This document shows, piece after piece, positions 1 to 42,537 of a stretch of 42,537 nucleotides of DNA. Each line of letters opens with the position of its first letter. Within the stretch, counting starts at the first letter, position 1. A model generated the notes under the pieces. The model was not told where the DNA came from, did not search any database, and saw only the letters and a list, made by a program, of their open reading frames with translations. Both the position numbers and the translations under genes were made by a program. Where the stretch lies: the UHGV virus genome UHGV-0420230. The stretch is one strand, 5' to 3'. Source of the DNA: a virus.

Positions 1-54
1 ATGTTTCTGATGCGATGAAAGTGGTGGATTCTGCCGTATCGGATGCCGCCAGGC
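1..54. repeat. 54-bp exact copy of 13173-13226 (internal to the DNA circulation gene)
   Basis: Base-by-base comparison: window 1-54 equals 13173-13226, diverging at 55 versus 13227. Confidence 0.9.
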
Positions 55-139
55 ACCATACGCCAGCAAAAGCACCCCCAGCCCGCCCCATCGTTTTTTT
101 ATACCCGCGAAAAATGAAATTTAACCAGGAGTGCCGCAT

Positions 140-2558: not shown

Positions 2559-3799
2559 TGTTCTTTTCGGGATTATTTCAACGAAAAAGTGACGCACCGG
2601 TGACCACGCCAGCAGAGCTGGTGGATGCTATCGGGCTGTCATACGACACCTATACCGGAAAGCAGATCAGCAGCCAGAGGGCCATGCGACTGACGGCGGT
2701 TTTTTCCTGCGTCAGGGTGCTGGCGGAGTCGGTCGGGATGTTGCCCTGCAACCTGTATCACCTGAACGGCAGCCTGAAGCAGAGAGCCACTGGCGAACGT
2801 CTGCATAAGCTGATCTCCACGCATCCCAATGGCTATATGACGCCGCAGGAGTTCTGGGAGCTGGTGGTCACCTGTCTGTGCCTGCGGGGAAACTTTTACG
2901 CCTACAAAGTGAAAGCATTTGGCGAAGTGGCTGAACTGCTGCCCGTCGATCCCGGCTGTGTGGTACCGAAGCTTAACAGTAGCTGGGAGCCGGTCTATCA
3001 GGTCACATTCCCGGATGGCTCCACGGATGTACTGAGCCAGGAGGATATCTGGCATGTGCGCACGCTGACGCTGGACGGACTGGTGGGGCTGAATCCCGTC
3101 GCCTATGCCCGCGAGGCAATATCGCTGGCGGCAGCGACCGAAGAGCACGGGGCCAGACTGTTCAGCAATGGCGCGGTGACGTCGGGTGTGTTGCGTACAG
3201 AGCAGACGCTGTCAGATCAGGCTTATGAGCGCCTGAAGAAAGATTTTGAGGAGCGTCACACCGGGCTTGGCAATGCTCACCGCCCGATGATCCTTGAGAT
3301 GGGGCTGGACTGGAAGTCGATGGCGCTGAACGCCGAGGACAGCCAGTTCCTGGAAACCCGCAAGTTTCAGCTTGAAGAAATCTGTCGTCTGTTCCGTGTG
3401 CCATTGCACATGGTGCAGAACACCGATCGCGCCACCTTCAACAATATCGAAGAGCTGGGGCTGGGATTTATCAACTATTCACTGGTGCCGTATCTGACCC
3501 GCATTGAGCAGCGGATCAACACCGGACTGGTACGAAAAAGTAAGCAGGGCGTTTATTACGCCAAATTTAACGCCGGGGCGTTACTGCGCGGGGATATGAA
3601 GTCCCGTTTTGAAGCCTACGCCACCGGGATTAACTGGGGAATTTACTCTCCCAATGACTGCCGCGACCTGGAAGATATGAATCCGCGTCCCGGTGGGGAT
3701 GTCTATCTCACACCGATGAACATGACCACGAAACCCTCCGATGGCAGTAAAGCCGGTAAGCAGAAGGATAACGCCAATGCAGACGAAACAACGTCTTGA
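2558..3799 (+). CDS. portal protein (HK97 family)
   Basis: 413 aa in the canonical position after the large terminase; GTG start with GGAGG upstream; portal-like sequence. Confidence 0.8.
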   Translation: MFFSGLFQRKSDAPVTTPAELVDAIGLSYDTYTGKQISSQRAMRLTAVFSCVRVLAESVGMLPCNLYHLNGSLKQRATGERLHKLISTHPNGYMTPQEFWELVVTCLCLRGNFYAYKVKAFGEVAELLPVDPGCVVPKLNSSWEPVYQVTFPDGSTDVLSQEDIWHVRTLTLDGLVGLNPVAYAREAISLAAATEEHGARLFSNGAVTSGVLRTEQTLSDQAYERLKKDFEERHTGLGNAHRPMILEMGLDWKSMALNAEDSQFLETRKFQLEEICRLFRVPLHMVQNTDRATFNNIEELGLGFINYSLVPYLTRIEQRINTGLVRKSKQGVYYAKFNAGALLRGDMKSRFEAYATGINWGIYSPNDCRDLEDMNPRPGGDVYLTPMNMTTKPSDGSKAGKQKDNANADETTS

Positions 3800-12598: not shown

Positions 12599-13972
12599 AT
12601 GGATTTTTCTCATATTTCTTCGTACCTATCCTCTGATTCTCGAAGTGGCTGGCGTGAAAAGCTACTTGAAGCATCATTTCGAGGTGTGCCGTTTAAGGTT
12701 GAAGAAGAAAGTGCGGGAACCGGTCGCCGTGTGGAAACACATGAATACCCGAACCGCGACAAGCCCTATACCGAAGATCTGGGAAAAGTCACTTTCCGCC
12801 CGTCCATCACAGCTTATGTGGTGGGAGATGACTGCTTTGACCAGCGCGATCGCCTGATTGAAGCGCTGAATAAACCCGGTCCCGGCACGCTTGTCCACCC
12901 GACATATGGTGAGCTGAAAGTCTGTGTTGACGGGGAAGTTCGGGTCAGCACATCGAAAAGTGAAGGGCGTATTGTCCGCTTTGACCTGAAGTTTGTCGAA
13001 GCAGGAGAACTCTCTTACCCCACATCAGGTGCGGCGACGGCGCAGACGCTGATGTCATCCTGTTCTGCACTGGATGACTGCATCAGTGACAGCTTCAGCG
13101 GTTTCAGTATCGATGGTGTGGCGGATTTCGTGCAGAACGACGTTATCGGTAATGCCAGCATAATGCTGGGGTATGTTTCTGATGCGATGAAAGTGGTGGA
13201 TTCTGCCGTATCGGATGCCGCCAGGCTGTTGCAGGGGGATATCTCGGTACTTCTGCAGCCGCCATCGTCAGGCAAAAATTTCGTTGAGCAGGTGCAGAAA
13301 ATGTGGCGTACCGGGAAACGCCTTTATGGTAACGCCAGCGACCTGGTCACCATGATCAAAACGCTTTCCGGTGTCAGCCTCGGCAGCGATCTGCAACCGC
13401 GCGGCGTCTGGAAAACGGACAGTAAAACCACCGCCACGGCGACGCAGCAGCGTAACGTGGTTGCCAGCACCCTTCGTACGACCGCAATCAGCGAAGCGGC
13501 GTATGCCGTCACCCGATTGCCTGCGCCAACAACTTCCGCGGTGATGCAGAATTCCGCAGTGGGGCAGGCAACAACACCTGCGCAGAGCACTGGCTGGCCT
13601 TCCGTCACGCATCCGGCACTGAACAATGCACCGGCGGTGAAAAACACGGTTGACCTGCCGACGTGGGAAGAACTGACTGACATTCGCGACACACTGAATA
13701 CGGCAATTGATAAGGAGTTGTCCCGTACAACCAGTGATGCGCTGTTTCTGGCGCTGCGCCGGGTGAAAGCAGATCTGAATGCGGATATCAACACGCGCCT
13801 TGAACAGTCTGCACGGATCATTCAGCGCACGCCGGATGAGGTTTTACCCGCGCTGGTGCTGGCGGCGACCTGGTTTGATAACGCGGCGCGTGACGCGGAC
13901 ATTATCCGGCGTAATGCCATTACGCATCCCGGCTTTGTGCCGGTGATCCCTCTGAAGGTGCCAGTGCAATGA
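12599..13972 (+). CDS. DNA circulation protein (Mu gp43-like)
   Basis: 457 aa in the conserved position after the tape measure in Mu-type tails. Confidence 0.75.
   Translation: MDFSHISSYLSSDSRSGWREKLLEASFRGVPFKVEEESAGTGRRVETHEYPNRDKPYTEDLGKVTFRPSITAYVVGDDCFDQRDRLIEALNKPGPGTLVHPTYGELKVCVDGEVRVSTSKSEGRIVRFDLKFVEAGELSYPTSGAATAQTLMSSCSALDDCISDSFSGFSIDGVADFVQNDVIGNASIMLGYVSDAMKVVDSAVSDAARLLQGDISVLLQPPSSGKNFVEQVQKMWRTGKRLYGNASDLVTMIKTLSGVSLGSDLQPRGVWKTDSKTTATATQQRNVVASTLRTTAISEAAYAVTRLPAPTTSAVMQNSAVGQATTPAQSTGWPSVTHPALNNAPAVKNTVDLPTWEELTDIRDTLNTAIDKELSRTTSDALFLALRRVKADLNADINTRLEQSARIIQRTPDEVLPALVLAATWFDNAARDADIIRRNAITHPGFVPVIPLKVPVQ
13173..13226. repeat. internal copy of the 54-bp sequence also found at 1-54
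   Basis: Exact identity to window 1-54. Confidence 0.9.
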
Positions 13973-26570: not shown

Positions 26571-27166
26571 TGGTTGCCTCCTTTGCGAAGCTGGGCGGCG
26601 ATATCTTCGAGAACGCCATCAGAGAATGAGCGGTCAAAATCGCCTTCCGGCGCATTAGCCATAAACTCAGTAGAGGTAAGAATCATCCTGGCAATATCCG
26701 CGGCGTTCTTTGCAGTATCATCAATAAAACCAGCTTCCCAGGCTGCCAACATTCTGTTCGCCACAAAATAAGCGCCTTCCTTGCGTGCTTCAGTCTTCCC
26801 TTCAGCCAGAAAAGCATCGGTGGCTGGGGTTTTGATTTCGTTAAGCGCATCACTGAATCCACCACGCTCCATACCTAGCTCTGCTTCGTAATCGGCATCG
26901 AATGCAGCGTCTTTGCAGAACTTCTTCAGCTTTGCATTCTCCGCAGCCAGCGCTGAAAACTTCTCGTGTGCCAACTTAACAGCTGCATCAGCCTGCTTAA
27001 TTGACTCAATCGCTTTCTGGTGGTCTTCGTACAGAGCCGAAATCTTGGCCTCCGCTTCAGCAAATTTACGCACCAGATATTCAGCGTTTGTTTCGTTCAC
27101 TTTCAGATCTCGCGGTACACATTTCCCGCGAAGAAACCCTTCCATTTCGAAAACATTCATGCGCAT
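26567..27166 (-). CDS. hypothetical protein
   Basis: 199-aa ORF in the early operon, overlapping start and stop. Confidence 0.55.
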   Translation of the reverse strand: MRMNVFEMEGFLRGKCVPRDLKVNETNAEYLVRKFAEAEAKISALYEDHQKAIESIKQADAAVKLAHEKFSALAAENAKLKKFCKDAAFDADYEAELGMERGGFSDALNEIKTPATDAFLAEGKTEARKEGAYFVANRMLAAWEAGFIDDTAKNAADIARMILTSTEFMANAPEGDFDRSFSDGVLEDIAAQLRKGGNQ

Positions 27167-27693
27167 TTGCGTAACTCCGATAACTCGTTAAAACGTTCCA
27201 TAAACATCCCATAGGCATGGCCTGGCGACAGTGGAATAACTTTGAACATCTCTGTTGCCGGGATACCTTCCAGTACAGGCCAGAAAGAGCCATCATCAAG
27301 CCCGAGATCGCGGCGTTCGGTTGCCAGCATGATGAGATCGGCATATTTCACGGGCGTACTCATAACCGGGGGTAACCCGTATTTCTCACGGATTACGGCG
27401 TCTATTTTTTCTTCCATCCGTTTATAGTCAGGAAGAAGGCGTTTCAGTGGTGCGGGAATGTCCTGGCAATACGCTTCTGTTGCATCATGCATTAACGCTT
27501 CAAAAGCAAATTCCTGCGGCACCAGCTGGCTGCAAAGAACCGCATGTTGGGCGACGCTGTAGAAGTGCGAAAGATGACCGGCAAAGCGACAGATATTTGA
27601 AAGGGAAACCGCGATATCGTTAATATCGATGTCGTCTTTATTTATCCTGTCATAATAAAAATGCTTCCCGGAAAAAGTTTTAATAAATGACAT
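27157..27693 (-). CDS. HD-domain protein, YfdR-like
   Basis: 178 aa from MSFIKTF; H..H..D-type motifs; same size as E. coli prophage YfdR. Confidence 0.65.
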   Translation of the reverse strand: MSFIKTFSGKHFYYDRINKDDIDINDIAVSLSNICRFAGHLSHFYSVAQHAVLCSQLVPQEFAFEALMHDATEAYCQDIPAPLKRLLPDYKRMEEKIDAVIREKYGLPPVMSTPVKYADLIMLATERRDLGLDDGSFWPVLEGIPATEMFKVIPLSPGHAYGMFMERFNELSELRKCA

Positions 27694-27788
27694 TTTGTTC
27701 TCCACGTATATGCGCTGCACCGCGCTGAATTCTGCTAAAAAGAATCCCTCACCATCCGGTGATTATTGAGTTAATTACGTTTCCATAA

Positions 27789-27812
27789 ATGCCCCCGCAG
27801 GGGCATTTGCAG
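27789..27812 (-). other. perfect stem-loop between early-operon genes
   Basis: AAATGCCCC-CGCA-GGGGCATTT inverted repeat; no T-run. Confidence 0.4.
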
Positions 27813-27820
27813 TAATGAAA

Positions 27821-28645
27821 TCAGGCGGTGAAAGTACCAATAAAGGTTTCTACTTTGCTGTCTTTGAATTTCTCAACAAGCAGATCACGAAATTCGTTAG
27901 CCATTTCTTCCTGCACCGCTTCCAGCTGAATAATGCGCAGAACCAGTACAGGACGATCGCCAGTGATAATGCTGAGGCGTAATTTAAACGGACGTTCTTT
28001 CAGACCTTCAAACGGAACGCATTTAAATTCAAATGCCACTGGCATAATGTCTTTGGTCTTCGCTTCGACAGACTCCATCAGGGAGCGTTTGCCGCTGAAG
28101 TCATTGTCTTCAAAATCAGCGGTCTGGTTCGCTTCAATTGTGATTTTACGGATCGCCGCAGCCGCTTTGGTTGCCTGAATGGCGTCACCATTAGCATCAA
28201 AGCCCACAAGGTAGTCGGCCCAGTCTTCAATCCATTCTGCCAGTGACTTCTGGGAGTTACGCTCGCCATTAACAGACAACAGAGCAGAGAACGGTGCTGT
28301 CTTTTTCAGTTTGAGAGTGGCGGTGTTATCTGCGTGACCTGGTTCATCAATAGTACCCAGGTTAAGCACACTGACGGCTCGCATATTATCGGCATCGATA
28401 AAGCAGCGGGTGCCTTCATCTGCAAGATCTTTAGAATAACGGGTAAAGTCATCGATGCTGGCAGTGGAAAGTGAACCACGGAAACGGAAACGATTTAAAT
28501 TAAATTTTTCCAGATCATGAATGCGGAAATTATCAGGCAATGCCACAGCATCGGCACCAATCTTACTGATAATTTCATTAACACCCTGAGCAGAAATAAG
28601 GGCATGGATTTGATTAATTGCGGTTGCGTCTAAGTACTGAGACAT
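27821..28645 (-). CDS. DUF2303 protein, YfdQ-like
   Basis: 274 aa, same size as E. coli prophage YfdQ; GAGGA RBS. Confidence 0.65.
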
Positions 28646-28710
28646 AATAAGTCCTCACTATATTAAGATATTCAGTGATGAGATAAATAATCAGTTAATT
28701 AAGAACGATA

Positions 28711-29073
28711 TTAATGACCTGCTGCGCGGAGTTTTCCGTCAGGTTCACCGGCAAGAGTCAGTAATTGTCCCTGGTCTTCCTGCAGAATAGTCAGGCGACC
28801 ACCGCGATTGACATACATCGGCGTTTCGGTGGTGTCTTCTTCGGAAATTTTCCCGCGGTTAGTCGGGCGAACATATGAGAGTTTGTGTTTGATTTTCACA
28901 CGGTTCTCATCAAATGGTTCGATTTCCAGGTTGAGTGAGACCTTCCCTTTGGTTTTCGTGTTCATCACACCGGAAGCGACTTCACTGAGAACTGCGCCGA
29001 TTTTGGTTTCAAATACGCCGCCGTCCAGCTCCCCGATAAATGCCTGCACATCAGTACTGCGTTCGCTAGCCAT
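28711..29073 (-). CDS. hypothetical protein, YfdP-like
   Basis: GAGGAG sits 7 nt before the internal ATG (MASERS...), giving a 120-aa product; the track start at 29091 would place the RBS inside the coding sequence. Confidence 0.55.
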   Translation of the reverse strand: MASERSTDVQAFIGELDGGVFETKIGAVLSEVASGVMNTKTKGKVSLNLEIEPFDENRVKIKHKLSYVRPTNRGKISEEDTTETPMYVNRGGRLTILQEDQGQLLTLAGEPDGKLRAAGH

Positions 29074-29091
29074 TTTGCTGCTCCTCATCAT

Positions 29092-29510
29092 ATCGACCCT
29101 GCAAGGTCGGTTGGTTTATCCACAAAACAGAGAAGAACACCTGCGGTGGCTGCCGCCCGGATGGATTGGGTTATGAGCCCGTCGTCCGGTGATGCTCTTC
29201 TCTGTTTTGTAAAAAGGACGGTACCAGCCGGAAGCAATGGTACAAGCTGGTACCGCCAGGACTACACACAGCATAAAGTTGTGGTGCCGGGTGCCTCCCG
29301 GTGCCTGGCGAAGGTTGCACACCAGGCGGGTGGGTATCCACAGAAGGTCGACTGTCAGCCTCAACCTTAACCCGCGTGCGCTGAGCCGCATTCACCACAA
29401 CGCTAAGGATTCTCTCTGGTTGAAAATACTTAGCTGTTATGTGCCTGTCTTTTCACCACTTCAGGCTCGGTGGTATCCTTTTAAGTCCGTATACATAAAA
29501 GGAAAATCAA
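29092..29510. other. GC-rich structured non-coding region
   Basis: About 420 bp without an RBS-led ORF, short ORFs overlapping in several frames; 14-bp perfect inverted repeat 29122-29135 / 29187-29200 and 9-bp perfect inverted repeat 29220-29228 / 29246-29254. Confidence 0.4.
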
Positions 29511-29756
29511 ATGACTTTTGATGAAAAAGAACTTGATAATGCAATTAATAAAATCATCGTAACGTCGCTCTTTTCCTGTCTCAGCGACACTCAGCAGAAA
29601 CAGTTCTACGAATCGGCTTTCAACATGATCGAGCGTTGTTGTTTCTGCGATGCCGACGAGCTACCTGAAAAAATCAGGAAACAGTTGGCTGATGCTCTTC
29701 GAGTGCGACTTTCTGACCAATTTTCTGAAATGTACTCTCCGAATTTGGACAAATAG
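29511..29756 (+). CDS. hypothetical protein (plus-strand gene embedded in the leftward operon)
   Basis: 81 aa; AAGGA RBS 8 nt upstream; hairpin just after the stop. Confidence 0.45.
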   Translation: MTFDEKELDNAINKIIVTSLFSCLSDTQQKQFYESAFNMIERCCFCDADELPEKIRKQLADALRVRLSDQFSEMYSPNLDK

Positions 29757-29949
29757 AAAAAGGCCATTTCCATTCAGGGTCTGATGGAAATACTTCAGCC
29801 TGTTCCAAAGCACGGCGTAAAGAGAATACAACTCCAGCCATAATCTGATGTTTCCCATTGGTCCAGCTATCGCCGCTCTGATCTACAGGAGCGGCTATGT
29901 CGTATGACCAAACGACTTCACCACTATTGTTTAAAATCTGGACTTTCAT
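29674..29949 (-). pseudogene. duplicated 5' copy (first 59 codons) of the downstream zinc-finger gene with a different, possibly non-functional C-terminus
   Basis: Start, RBS and 59 codons lie within the 198-bp perfect repeat; the divergent C-terminal 32 codons overlap the convergent plus-strand ORF. Confidence 0.35.
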
Positions 29950-29970
29950 TTTGTTCTTTAACCTCCAGAT
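29773..29970. repeat. 198-bp perfect direct repeat, copy 1
   Basis: Identical to 30162-30359 (offset 389 bp), verified base by base. Confidence 0.9.
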
Positions 29971-30338
29971 TTCCGCGCATCTAAAGGCGCATTCTCATTT
30001 GGTGTGAACTGAATAGTTGTGCTGATATTGATTAATGCCTCGACACTCAAGACTACGCACTCAGAGCAGATAGCAACTTCATCTTTTCCGCCTTTGGCGA
30101 TGATTTTTTTTGCCTGCAGCTCGTTTGCGCCACAAAACGAGCATGTGAAATAACGGTTCATTTCAGGGTCTGATGGAAATACTTCAGCCTGTTCCAAAGC
30201 ACGGCGTAAAGAGAATACAACTCCAGCCATAATCTGATGTTTCCCATTGGTCCAGCTATCGCCGCTCTGATCTACAGGAGCGGCTATGTCGTATGACCAA
30301 ACGACTTCACCACTATTGTTTAAAATCTGGACTTTCAT
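29958..30338 (-). CDS. protein with C-terminal ClpX-type C4 zinc finger
   Basis: FTCSFCGANELQAKKIIAKGGKDEVAICSECV resembles the ClpX N-terminal zinc-binding domain; GGAGG RBS; first gene after pL. Confidence 0.65.
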   Translation of the reverse strand: MKVQILNNSGEVVWSYDIAAPVDQSGDSWTNGKHQIMAGVVFSLRRALEQAEVFPSDPEMNRYFTCSFCGANELQAKKIIAKGGKDEVAICSECVVLSVEALINISTTIQFTPNENAPLDARKSGG

Positions 30339-30359
30339 TTTGTTCTTTAACCTCCAGAT
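30162..30359. repeat. 198-bp perfect direct repeat, copy 2
   Basis: Identical to 29773-29970. Confidence 0.9.
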
Positions 30360-30456
30360 ACGGGCGTTTAATGGCCCCGCCGAACAGCTCTTTTCCGCAA
30401 TAGCTGCAATGTCTTTCGCGCATCAGCCTGCGCATTCACCACAACTCTAAAAACAA

Positions 30457-30509
30457 ATGTAGGATATCCAACATGTGAGTGTCAAGAGTTTATGTTGGTT
30501 ATCATACAT
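30457..30509 (-). promoter_or_regulatory. OL-type operator sites and leftward early promoter (pL-like)
   Basis: 18-bp palindromes ATGTAGGATATCCAACAT (30457-30474) and ATGTTGGTTATCATACAT (30492-30509); minus-strand TTGACA (plus 30480-30485) with 17-bp spacer. Confidence 0.55.
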
Positions 30510-30523
30510 AAAAAGATAGGCTC

Positions 30524-30551
30524 ATAAAAAAACCGGGGATACCCCGGTTTT
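30524..30551 (-). terminator. rho-independent terminator downstream of the repressor gene
   Basis: Hairpin AACCGGGG-ATA-CCCCGGTT with a 7-T run on the minus strand. Confidence 0.7.
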
Positions 30552-30571
30552 GCGATAGTGAGGAAGATGTG

Positions 30572-31225
30572 TCAAAAATCCATTATTACTTGTTTGACAA
30601 GACCAACTATTCTGCAGTTCTCACCGCATTCAATAGTTTTATAGTTAGGATTTAGTGGGACGAGATACCTGTTCGGCCAGTCCTCAACAAATTTTTTGAG
30701 TGTCGCTTCTTGCCCACCATTGATATGGGCAACAACGATTTTTCCGTTAATACACTCTGTATCAATAATATCTGGCTCTACGATAACGATAGAACCTTCT
30801 GGTATCGATGGTGAGCCGAGGGGATTGGTCATTGAATCACCACGGACCCGTAGTGCAAATGCCATTTCTGATACAAGGGCGGTAGTATAAACCCACTCTT
30901 CAGCATCTTCTTTCCTGACACCAGGCTCCGTCATTGTCCATGAACCCGCCTGAACCCACGAGATGAGGGGGACTTTTTTAACTGCGAATATTTCAGGTTT
31001 TAGATTTATCTTTGGTTCAGGCGAGCCTTTTCCGCTAACAAGCCACAGAGGATCGCATTTAAGTGCGTTGGCTAGGGCTTGAAGGTTGGCTCCATTTGGT
31101 TGGTAGTCGTCCTTTTCCCATCCAGTAACCGTGACACGGTTCACACCAGTCAAATCAGCCAGTGCTTGTTGTGTCAGGTTCAGTTCTTTTCGCCTTTGGC
31201 GAATACGATCACTCATGTTCATCAT
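30572..31225 (-). CDS. CI-like repressor (HTH plus S24 LexA-like peptidase domain)
   Basis: N-terminal HTH (LTQQALADLTGVNRVTVTGWE); C-terminal RGDSM...K motif of self-cleaving repressors; divergent from the Cro-like gene. Confidence 0.85.
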   Translation of the reverse strand: MMNMSDRIRQRRKELNLTQQALADLTGVNRVTVTGWEKDDYQPNGANLQALANALKCDPLWLVSGKGSPEPKINLKPEIFAVKKVPLISWVQAGSWTMTEPGVRKEDAEEWVYTTALVSEMAFALRVRGDSMTNPLGSPSIPEGSIVIVEPDIIDTECINGKIVVAHINGGQEATLKKFVEDWPNRYLVPLNPNYKTIECGENCRIVGLVKQVIMDF

Positions 31226-31288
31226 GTAGGCAATCCTACCACATGCCCATGTAGGATTCTTGACATTGGTATGTTGGATATCCTACAT
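31224..31288 (+). promoter_or_regulatory. OR-type tripartite operator with rightward early promoter (pR-like)
   Basis: Three related palindromes at 31224-31241, 31248-31265 and 31271-31288 (the last exactly the reverse complement of OL1), spaced 23-24 bp; TTGACA 31260-31265. Confidence 0.6.
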
Positions 31289-31320
31289 TTCTGCTTAACG
31301 TAATTTAACGGGAGACAGAA

Positions 31321-31518
31321 ATGCGGAAATCCGACGTGATTAATTATTTCGGCGGAGTTTGTAAAACCGCCGAAGCCCTAGGTATTAAGCATCCGTCTGT
31401 TTCAGAGTGGCCTGAGATTATTCCTGAAGGCCGAGCGTACCAGTTAGAAAAAATTACTAACGGGAAACTGAAAGTTGACGTGTCTTTATATCAAAAGACT
31501 AACAGTGCTGCGGCATAA
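31321..31518 (+). CDS. Cro-like regulator
   Basis: 65 aa small HTH protein divergent from the repressor; GGGAGA RBS. Confidence 0.7.
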   Translation: MRKSDVINYFGGVCKTAEALGIKHPSVSEWPEIIPEGRAYQLEKITNGKLKVDVSLYQKTNSAAA

Positions 31519-31545
31519 AAACACCACAGAAATGAGGAATTAACC

Positions 31546-32130
31546 GTGGGTAAAGAACCTGAATGGAAAGTTGATAAACAACCAGCATGGCTGGTGGCAG
31601 CAATACGAAGAACGATTGCTGATTTACCTCATGGCTATGAGGAAGCAGCAGAAATTCTTGGTTTGTATAAATCTGATGATATCACCCCAGCAAAAGATCA
31701 ATTGCATAACAGACTGCGTAGCGGTGGGGATCAAATTTTTCCACTTGAGTGGGCCATGGTTTTACAGGATGCCAGTGGTACCAGGCATGTAACAGATGCA
31801 ATAGCCCGTCGTAGTAATGGGGTGTTTGTGCCGCTGGTGGTCATTGATGACATTGACAATGGTGACATTAATCAGCGGCTGATGGAGTCAATAGAATGGA
31901 TTGGCAAGCATTCCCGGTACTTACGCAAGGCAACTGCTGATGGAGTTATTGACCAAGCTGAGCGTGAGCAAATCGAAGAGAACAGCTACCAAGTAATGGC
32001 GAAGTGGCAGGAGCATTTAACACTGTTATTTCGTGTTTTTTGTGCGCCGGAAAAGAGTAACGCCCGCGAGTGTGCAGCTCCGGGCGTCGTGGCGTCGATT
32101 GCTTCTGGTTGTGGAGAAACTAACGCATGA
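31546..32130 (+). CDS. YmfL/CII-like early regulatory protein (hypothetical)
   Basis: 194 aa following Cro; GTG start with GAGGAA RBS; assignment by position and size only. Confidence 0.5.
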
Positions 32131-32465
32131 ACAGTTTAACAACACACTACCGTCGCTCGCAACTGATTGCGCTTCCTGTACCGGGTGGAAAAGCGAAGGT
32201 GGAGTATTGCTATGCAGTGAATGTACCAGGTGACAGGGAAATTGTAACCCACAGCTTTGCAGAGTGGGCTGTGGGTGATTTCAACCGGCAGAAGGAGACA
32301 GTCCTTTGCAACAAGTTAACCGCTGGTTCAAAGATCACTACGGAGTGCCCGTCAGAGTCATTCGTTGGGAGCCGGAAACACAACGGGTTATCTACCTCCG
32401 TGAAGGCTATGAACATGAATGCTTCAGTCCGCTCGAACAGTTTCGTCGTAAATTCAGGGAAATAG
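32127..32465 (+). CDS. hypothetical protein (YmfM-like by size and position)
   Basis: 112 aa; ATGA overlap with upstream gene; 3' half overlaps an alternative frame. Confidence 0.4.
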
Positions 32466-32497
32466 AGGTCGGTCATGAGCAAACCAGTAATGATTGA
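32306..32497 (+). CDS. hypothetical protein, TTG start (alternative overlapping frame)
   Basis: AGGAG at 32293-32297 precedes TTG 32306; product more protein-like than the overlapping frame; stop overlaps the Rha start. Confidence 0.4.
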
Positions 32498-39578: not shown

Positions 39579-40631
39579 ATGAAAAATACTGTAAAAATAA
39601 ACAGTGTTGATTTAATCAACGCTGATTGCCTGCATTTTATTCAGTCCCTGCCTGATGATTCCATTGACCTGATTGTTACCGATCCGCCTTACTTCAAGGT
39701 GAAACCTAACGGTTGGGACAATCAGTGGAAAGGGGATGAAGATTACCTTAAGTGGCTGGACCACTGTCTGGCCCAGTTCTGGCGGGTGTTGAAACCTGCC
39801 GGAAGCCTTTACCTGTTCTGTGGGCATCGCCTAGCATCTGATATTGAGATCATGATGCGTGAACGTTTCAACGTGCTTAACCATATCATCTGGGCGAAGC
39901 CGTCCGGACGTTGGAATGGGTGTAATAAAGAAAGTCTGCGCGCATATTTTCCTGCCACAGAGCGCGTTCTGTTTGCTGAACATTACCAGGGGCCATATCG
40001 CGGCAAAAGTGACGGCTATGCGGCAAAAGAAAGGGAACTCAAACAGCACATAATGGCACCGCTGATATCGTATTTCAGGGATGCTCGTGCCGAACTGGGT
40101 ATAACGGCAAAACAAATTGCCGAAGCCACAGGTAAGAAAAATATGGTTTCCCACTGGTTTGGTGCCAGTCAGTGGCAGTTGCCGAATGAGGCTGACTATC
40201 GGAAGTTACAGGCACTGTTTTCCCGTATAGCGGCAGAGAAGTTTCAGGAACAACAACTGGAACAACCACACCACCAGCTGGTGGCATCTTATGATTCACT
40301 GAATCGTAAATATTCTGAATTGCTGGATGAGTTTAAATCTCTCCGGCGCTATTTCTCCGTATCAGTCTCCGTGCCTTATACCGATGTCTGGATGCATAAA
40401 CCCGTTCAGTTCTACCCGGGGAAACATCCGTGTGAGAAACCGGCGGATATGCTCAGGCAAATAATCAATGCCAGTAGTCGACCAGGTGATCTGGTTGCTG
40501 ATTTTTTTATGGGATCCGGTTCCACAATAAAAGCAGCAATGGCGCTGGGGCGTCGGGCCTTAGGTGTTGAGCTTGAGTCAGAGCGGTTTAATCAGACAGT
40601 GAAAGAGATAAACGAGCTGGTGGGGAAATAA
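39579..40631 (+). CDS. DNA methyltransferase (N6/N4 type, DPPY motif), late-expressed orphan
   Basis: IVTDPPYF motif near the N-terminus and C-terminal AdoMet-binding region (DFFMGSGST); no adjacent restriction gene. Confidence 0.8.
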   Translation: MKNTVKINSVDLINADCLHFIQSLPDDSIDLIVTDPPYFKVKPNGWDNQWKGDEDYLKWLDHCLAQFWRVLKPAGSLYLFCGHRLASDIEIMMRERFNVLNHIIWAKPSGRWNGCNKESLRAYFPATERVLFAEHYQGPYRGKSDGYAAKERELKQHIMAPLISYFRDARAELGITAKQIAEATGKKNMVSHWFGASQWQLPNEADYRKLQALFSRIAAEKFQEQQLEQPHHQLVASYDSLNRKYSELLDEFKSLRRYFSVSVSVPYTDVWMHKPVQFYPGKHPCEKPADMLRQIINASSRPGDLVADFFMGSGSTIKAAMALGRRALGVELESERFNQTVKEINELVGK

Positions 40632-42423: not shown

Positions 42424-42537
42424 TAATAATTCTCAACTGTCTGAGGGGAGGGGCGGGTCAAATCCCTGTGACCTGACGTCTTCCGGAGAAATAGCGCCGG
42501 AGAGATTTAAACTCATCCAGCAATTCAGAATATTTAC

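Follow-up and report, generated by a model that had tools for sequence, protein, structure and literature searches.

How a temperate phage genome comes to carry the same 198 bp twice, on either side of one small zinc-finger gene, and which of the two open reading frames (ORFs) opened by that repeat is the natural gene, are the questions raised by a locus just downstream of the leftward early promoter PL of UHGV virus genome UHGV-0420230. The window, by which we mean the whole 42,537-nt stretch that was analysed, reads as a complete SfV/SfIV/vB_EcoM-720R4-like temperate phage genome extending from the terminase end to a cos-adjacent HNH gene. The two copies of the repeat are direct and exact, with starts 389 bp apart, and the identity ends at the repeat edges, neither flank extending the match. 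An exact 198-mer match is far above chance, and no other long repeat occurs within the 42.5-kb window except a 54-nt copy at the contig start. Read on the minus strand, each copy supplies GGAGG, 12 nt, an ATG and the same 59 codons, as the earlier note had correctly described, with the promoter-proximal copy (R2) opening a 126-aa ORF that runs in frame into a ClpX-type C4 zinc finger and the promoter-distal copy (R1) opening a 91-aa ORF. Throughout, R denotes the 198-bp segment, X the region of an 81-aa plus-strand gene, Z the segment between the repeats and Y the PL leader (Table 1).

Table 1. Position, strand and basis of the features at the repeat locus and in the adjoining early region of the window.
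Feature	Position	Strand	Basis or content
X, convergent 81-aa gene, phrog_3311	29511..29756	+	phrog_3311 match, E 3.1e-55
Intact 91-aa gene, SfV orf33 family, phrog_3195	29674..29949	-	RefSeq WP_001514782.1
R1, promoter-distal repeat copy	29773..29970	-	RBS and codons 1-59 of the intact 91-aa orf33-like gene
Chimeric 126-aa ORF	29958..30338	-	59 orf33-like codons and the complete 67-aa zinc-finger protein
Z, unique segment between the repeats	29971..30161	-	Body of the ClpX-type C4 zinc-finger gene
Z/R novel junction 30161|30162	30160..30163	.	TT at 30162-30163 common to both parental contexts
R2, promoter-proximal repeat copy	30162..30359	-	RBS and 59 codons as in R1, joined in frame to the Z ATG
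Y, PL leader module	30360..30450	-	Small ORF 30313-30435; terminal 20-mer 30431-30450
Predicted PL promoter, TTGACA-18-TACATT	30485..30456	-	Promoter scan
Palindromic operator-like sites	30457-30474, 30492-30509, 31271-31288	.	40-nt inverted repeat, operator family
CI-type repressor (HTH and S24 peptidase)	30572..31225	-	Pfam hits; 720R4 immunity type
Cro-like gene	31321-31518	+	Adjoining immunity region

The earlier note took the duplication to provide two alternative starts for a ClpX-zinc-finger gene family. This reading did not survive comparison with the families concerned: the window contains a single zinc-finger gene, and the repeat belongs to the 91-aa gene, which matches the SfV orf33 family (phrog_3195) over its full length (E 8e-64, residues 1-91). 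The family is small, with 18 representatives found by an exhaustive HMMER search, and homologues from Salmonella and elsewhere, at 41-67% identity, align across residues 1-84/86. Both W60 and P63 are invariant in the 12 aligned family sequences, and a W-x-W/Y-P-F motif lies immediately past the breakpoint. The 91-aa ORF therefore resembles its relatives from end to end, W60-x-W/Y-P63-F included, whereas the 126-aa ORF does so over residues 1-59 only, the motif being replaced by the zinc-finger protein. Since the C-terminus is conserved with invariant W60 and P63, the 32 codons past the repeat, previously described as unrelated, are the native C-terminus of the 91-aa protein, and the 59-residue part of the chimera is a truncated domain. 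R1 starts a full-length family member whose position agrees with that of the gene in SfV and 720R4 and in prophages of Salmonella and other enterobacteria: counted from the repressor along the leftward early strand, it comes first or second. In the Salmonella and other prophages, the genes that follow it include homologues of KilR, Gam and exonuclease VIII. The R2 copy differs from SfV orf33 in being a 59-residue fragment without the invariant W60 and P63. Structure prediction for the 91-aa protein from the 12-sequence alignment (mean pLDDT 57.9) was too poor for a fold search, and a literature search on SfV orf33 returned nothing useful.

The 91-aa gene and the 81-aa gene of X converge, their 3' ends sharing 83 bp, in agreement with the overlap that the earlier note had remarked between the 91-aa frame and a convergent plus-strand ORF. 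The same overlap occurs in a diverged Salmonella locus, in which the 81-aa gene is 61% and the 91-aa gene 64-67% identical, and RefSeq annotates just one of the pair in any given genome. Neither protein had a match in Pfam, NCBIfam or PADLOC.

The native zinc-finger ORF is 67 aa long (29958-30161, minus strand), with its stop codon inside R1. The relatives likewise contradict the idea of alternative starts, the zinc-finger gene being a standalone gene of 67-78 aa in every relative, with its own ATG at the equivalent of window position 30161. In UPEC 26-1, RefSeq annotates it as the standalone WP_001083098.1, a "ClpX C4-type zinc finger protein", and family members are 67-78 aa long in E. coli, while those of Salmonella and Citrobacter bear C-terminal extensions and measure 101-127 aa. 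The match to Pfam PF06689 spans residues 65-100 of the 126-aa ORF and scores 39.7 bits (gathering cut-off 27; E 4.6e-10), and Z matches phrog_5259 (E 4.3e-30). The family alignment shows no variation at the four cysteine ligands of Z (C7, C10, C32 and C35, equivalent to C66, C69, C91 and C94 of the chimera), which also align to 2ds7 and 1ovx, two structures of the ClpX zinc-binding domain. With the N-terminal zinc-binding domain of ClpX (PF06689; 1ovx, 2ds5-2ds8), Z shares the CxxC...CxxC spacing and flanking residues (CSFCG...ICSECV). Against the ClpX models NF003745 and TIGR00382 of NCBIfam, it scores 24.9 and 20.1 bits (cut-offs 359 and 371), only the first ~45 profile positions being matched, and its product, having no AAA+ module, is by its sequence not a ClpX unfoldase. 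Unlike ClpX, Z is natively a 67-aa phage early protein, which in the window has acquired 59 foreign N-terminal residues. PADLOC gave no match for the zinc-finger protein, and a literature search on standalone ClpX-type zinc fingers in phages yielded nothing useful.

The window's Z also has two private non-synonymous changes, C39S and G41E (window 30040 and 30047). Cys39, which 10 of 10 other family members in the alignment retain, is the counterpart of the Cys that follows the second CxxC of E. coli ClpX (CVDLC). Two private changes in 191 bp are no significant enrichment over the 15 found in the 3,064 bp of the whole arm.

Upstream of these genes, a rightward promoter at 31260..31289 (plus strand) has hexamers identical to those of the predicted PL. 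Both predicted promoters, PL and PR, lie inside a 40-nt inverted repeat bearing palindromic operator-like sites, and the predicted PL region (30456..30509) mirrors PR/OR at 31258-31297. The PL site and gene layout imply a transcript that runs through the leader ORF (30435-30313), the 126-aa ORF and the 91-aa ORF to yfdP/yfdQ/yfdR-like genes. Between the end of the repressor gene and PL lies a GC-rich hairpin (CCGGGG-ATA-CCCCGG, 30526-30547) followed by seven T on the minus strand; read directly from the sequence and absent from the consensus scan output, it is probably the repressor terminator. At the far side of the locus, the stretch equivalent to 29088-29398 (minus strand) is annotated by RefSeq as a "frameshifted hypothetical protein" pseudogene in all five prophages examined (those of 1332KP and UPEC 26-1, locus L005 and the two of E. 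coli SOI121 described below). It contains a 25-nt imperfect inverted repeat (arms 29122-29146 and 29186-29210), and a non-coding element may have been mistaken for the pseudogene that is called in every relative.

Comparison with related phages recovered two parental arrangements, X-R-Z-Y' and X-R-Y, and the Z|R junction in neither. The order X-R-Z-Y', here called A-type, was found in E. coli UPEC 26-1 and ~54 of 5,426 complete E. coli genomes, while X-R-Y, with a single R and no Z, here called B-type, was found in phages vB_EcoM-720R4 and SKA5. SfV has X and a single-copy R, then different upstream sequence, and in strain 1332KP and about ten others X-R-Y is followed by a second cassette and then by a 63-bp truncated R, Z and Y'. 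In nature the zinc-finger gene and the 91-aa gene are thus two separate adjacent genes just downstream of PL, and the standalone phrog_5259 gene is the first gene after PL in A-type phages. Among the arrangements compared, the window alone has R on both sides of Z. R1 stands in the native X-R context, as in all relatives, and is colinear with 720R4, 1332KP, UPEC 26-1 and a fourth locus (L002), and the right flank of R2 is colinear with 720R4 in the order R-Y.

The two flanks differ in their affinities. The left flank (27100-30163) has 15 mismatches to UPEC 26-1 in 3,064 positions (99.51% identity), compared with 62 in 2,908 (97.87%) between window 27063-29970 and 720R4. The right flank (30162-32481) matches 720R4 at 99.66% identity, whereas UPEC 26-1, with its different immunity region, offers no homology to it. 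We therefore read the window as a hybrid of an A-type left arm and a B-type right arm. Colinearity with UPEC 26-1 gives way to complete divergence beyond 30163 and R2 starts at 30162, leaving a 2-nt TT microhomology, and at the junction 30161|30162 the ATG of Z continues the reading frame directly from codon 59 of the 91-aa gene. The A-type Y'/immunity-A sequence GCGCTCTCTTACACATAGTATTTAACG follows that ATG in UPEC 26-1. A hairpin at the R breakpoint (29766-29791) was considered as the cause of the break and rejected, its fold being weak (-6.6 kcal/mol, z -1.66).

R itself is 100% identical in both copies of the window, in UPEC 26-1 and in 720R4. Because it is identical in both parent types, the perfect identity of the two copies is uninformative on age and needs no gene conversion; gene conversion and very recent duplication were accordingly set aside as unnecessary. 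Of the explanations that the earlier note had offered for the perfect identity, recombination stands as the best and an assembly artefact as a possible one, and it is recency and gene conversion that fall away.

We consider it probable that the repeat is the scar of one illegitimate unequal crossover between two related temperate E. coli/Shigella phages, a single event that would have produced the whole structure. The locus combines direct repeats, one novel junction, parental arrangements (720R4 and UPEC 26-1) without that junction and flanks of different ancestry, the features by which unequal or illegitimate crossover is recognized. An A-type parent, with the order X, R (91-aa gene), Z (67-aa ClpX-type zinc-finger gene), Y' and immunity A, would have given the left arm through Z, and a B-type parent, with X, R, Y, PL and immunity B, the right arm. 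The join would have been made out of register at the 2-nt TT, linking the A-type start codon of Z to the codon 59/60 boundary of the B-type 91-aa gene, either between molecules or by deletion within tandem or co-resident prophages. Its product, X-R-Z|R-Y, would keep the 91-aa gene intact, add a second copy of its RBS and first 59 codons and place Z under the immunity-B PL as an in-frame 126-aa chimera. E. coli SOI121 (NZ_AP035757.1) offers the occasion for an exchange of this kind, in that both prophage types are found in one chromosome (at ~4.375 Mb and ~3.70 Mb), one with X-R-Z-Y' and ymfK-type immunity and the other with X-R-Y and the window's repressor/cro/ymfL-type immunity region. The CT02 record likewise lists two places.

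The same sequence would also arise in two steps, by a 389-bp head-to-tail duplication of R-Z in an A-type phage (giving X-R-Z-R-Z-Y') and a later homologous exchange with a B-type phage in the second R, swapping Z-Y'-immunity A for Y-immunity B. Tandem duplication of R-Z yields exactly the same Z|R junction and, R being identical in both types, an exchange inside it would be traceless; yet this scheme calls for a second event although one is enough, neither R-Z-R-Z nor the Z|R junction turned up in any genome of the collections searched, and we regard it as improbable. Those searches used a 160-bp probe, with which the junction was absent from 50,697 phage records and 72,556 plasmids and, as a contiguous match, from 5,426 complete E. 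coli genomes; in the latter, each of the 40 records listed from 55 with full coverage showed the two probe halves 391 bp apart and in the native order, the reverse of that in the probe. A 56-bp junction-centred probe gave no match at all in the 5,426 E. coli genomes, and a 24-mer across the junction was absent from IMG/VR viral contigs, from 185,579 species genomes and from JGI metagenome contigs. When the 126-aa ORF was compared with 5.8 billion proteins, both families were matched, no match extended over more than 71% of the query and no fusion architecture was found.

A junction found nowhere else is as private as an artefact would be, and this one is known from assembled sequence alone. 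The contig ends bear on the matter. Window positions 1-54 are an exact direct copy of 13173-13226, a site inside the tail/DNA-circulation gene that is normal in relatives; positions 48-82 match 2411-2445 as reverse complement; and 42484-42537, which make up the final 54 nt, match 40306-40359 exactly in the same inverted sense. SfIV homology does not go past the cos ends of that phage, beyond which lie window positions 1-80 and 42488-42537. That two terminal copies each measure exactly 54 nt suggests a de Bruijn graph built at k ~55, with chimeric links retained where the genome physically ends, and in such a graph the 198-bp R, being longer than k, is a collapsed node and R-Z-R a loop. On an artefactual origin, the phage itself would have the order X-R-Y, having arisen by homologous recombination or being simply B-type with a left arm that resembles A-type. 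The sample would also have contained a second, A-type phage or prophage as the source of Z, and the Z-to-R link, supplied by a chimeric read or by template switching, would have been resolved by a short-read de Bruijn assembler as an R-Z-R loop. The chimeric links evidently kept at both contig ends, the 35-nt inverted piece among them, lend this some weight, as does the existence of polylysogens with both prophage types. However, the native upstream flank of Z shares no 54-mer with R, only a few bases, which makes a misjoin induced by the repeat alone impossible, so that an artefact needs real junction-spanning reads. Chimeric links normally persist only at low-coverage physical ends and not inside a well-covered genome, the Y'/immunity-A sequence is absent from the window, and two coincidences (contaminant and chimera) are needed where the hybrid model needs one event. 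We judge an artefact unlikely, and the record warrants checking against reads because its contig ends contain assembly chimeras.

Under the single crossover, the consequences for Z can be followed from the junction. The sequence CCATCAGACCCTGAA now precedes the Z ATG and has no Shine-Dalgarno match. As its own upstream region has been lost, Z is probably made mainly as a fusion, with the chimera translated from the R2 RBS. The 59-residue part would be a non-functional fragment, since it ends just before the invariant W-x-W-P-F motif, and the chimera, given this loss and the changes C39S and G41E, fits a neutral or decaying scar. A single-sequence AlphaFold model of the chimera (mean pLDDT 40.9) was too poor to use.

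The opposite reading is of a maintained design, in which the repeats would be held identical by gene conversion or selection and would either equip the zinc-finger protein and the 91-aa protein with a common N-terminal module or switch Z on and off by recombination. In its favour, the reading frame is preserved across the fusion, all four zinc ligands are kept and the repeat is perfect; but an in-frame join is a one-in-three chance and the perfect identity is already explained by the conservation of R across lineages. Furthermore, the architecture is unique among the 5.8 billion proteins and all DNA collections searched, the 91-aa family sequence is broken off immediately ahead of the invariant W60/P63 motif, and the window's Z has two private amino-acid changes, one of them at a Cys common to all of the 10 other aligned members. 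We hold such a design to be extremely improbable. Very improbable too is a more specific proposal, in which the chimera would be a selected, PL-driven immediate-early gene placing a ClpX-type domain on an orf33-like N-terminal hairpin-helix as a decoy for ClpX N-domain adaptors or substrates, the 198-bp repeats would act as a high-frequency off-switch through a 389-bp deletion to the 720R4-type order, and phrog_5259 might be an anti-ClpXP factor. A role for Z as a decoy or competitor against ClpX adaptors or substrates is speculation.

As the scar of a crossover, the structure would be unstable, recombination between R1 and R2 being expected to delete 389 bp and to restore X-R-Y as in 720R4 and SKA5. 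The region has been repeatedly rearranged in relatives, as in 1332KP, with its two cassettes and a truncated R adjoining Z. In the window, the 20-mer CGCATTCACCACAACKCTAA (29387-29406 and 30431-30450) flanks the ~1-kb X-R-Z-R-Y cassette, and on the minus strand it includes an RBS-like GGTGA and an ATG. In E. coli 1332KP (2943-3033 of its locus), the same 20-mer is the switch point between two tandem cassettes, and it suggests a recurrent cassette-exchange boundary downstream of PL.

The PL leader has a history of its own. An 86-bp module (30360-30445) codes a 25-aa ORF MRRLMRERHCSYCGKELFGGAIKRP that is 100% conserved in Stx2 phages and mEp460, where its stop falls exactly on the module boundary, and part of it recurs close to plp in P1-like phages. 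In the window this stop has been lost, and the small ORF of Y is 40 aa rather than the native 25 aa seen in mEp460, reading through into R2. Its CSYCG motif had raised the possibility of a second zinc-finger remnant, which was rejected because the mEp460 homologue is a complete 25-aa ORF ending at the module boundary.

Two known classes of rearrangement offer a comparison. Hendrix and colleagues, in comparisons of HK97 and HK022, reportedly found that mosaic joints in lambdoid phages are made by illegitimate recombination, and surviving joints of this kind usually lie at gene boundaries. The window's joint resembles them in its abrupt one-point switch of affinity, its 2-nt microhomology, its setting in temperate phages with different immunity regions and its place in the variable accessory region beside the repressor. 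It differs in lying at a start codon on one side and mid-gene on the other, and in being out of register, so that a 198-bp duplication and a chimeric ORF are left behind; it looks like a fresh joint that selection has yet to tidy. Classical genetics also established that tandem and segmental duplications in lambda and bacterial chromosomes form by unequal crossing-over. With these the locus shares same-orientation direct repeats around a unique segment, one novel junction and an expected loss by homologous recombination, whereas its two copies probably came from two parents rather than one molecule and its unit is very small, 198 bp at a 389-bp period.

Overall, the locus reads as an ordinary case of phage mosaicism, private to this genome. 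For annotation, it follows that the 126-aa "zinc-finger protein" is no natural member of its family and that the 91-aa ORF is the real orf33-like gene. If real, the structure would be a small, clean case of the mosaic origin of a temperate phage, in which both parental arrangements are identifiable and the breakpoint is resolved to 2 nt, and an instance of an out-of-register joint, with a chimeric ORF created alongside, that selection has still to purge.
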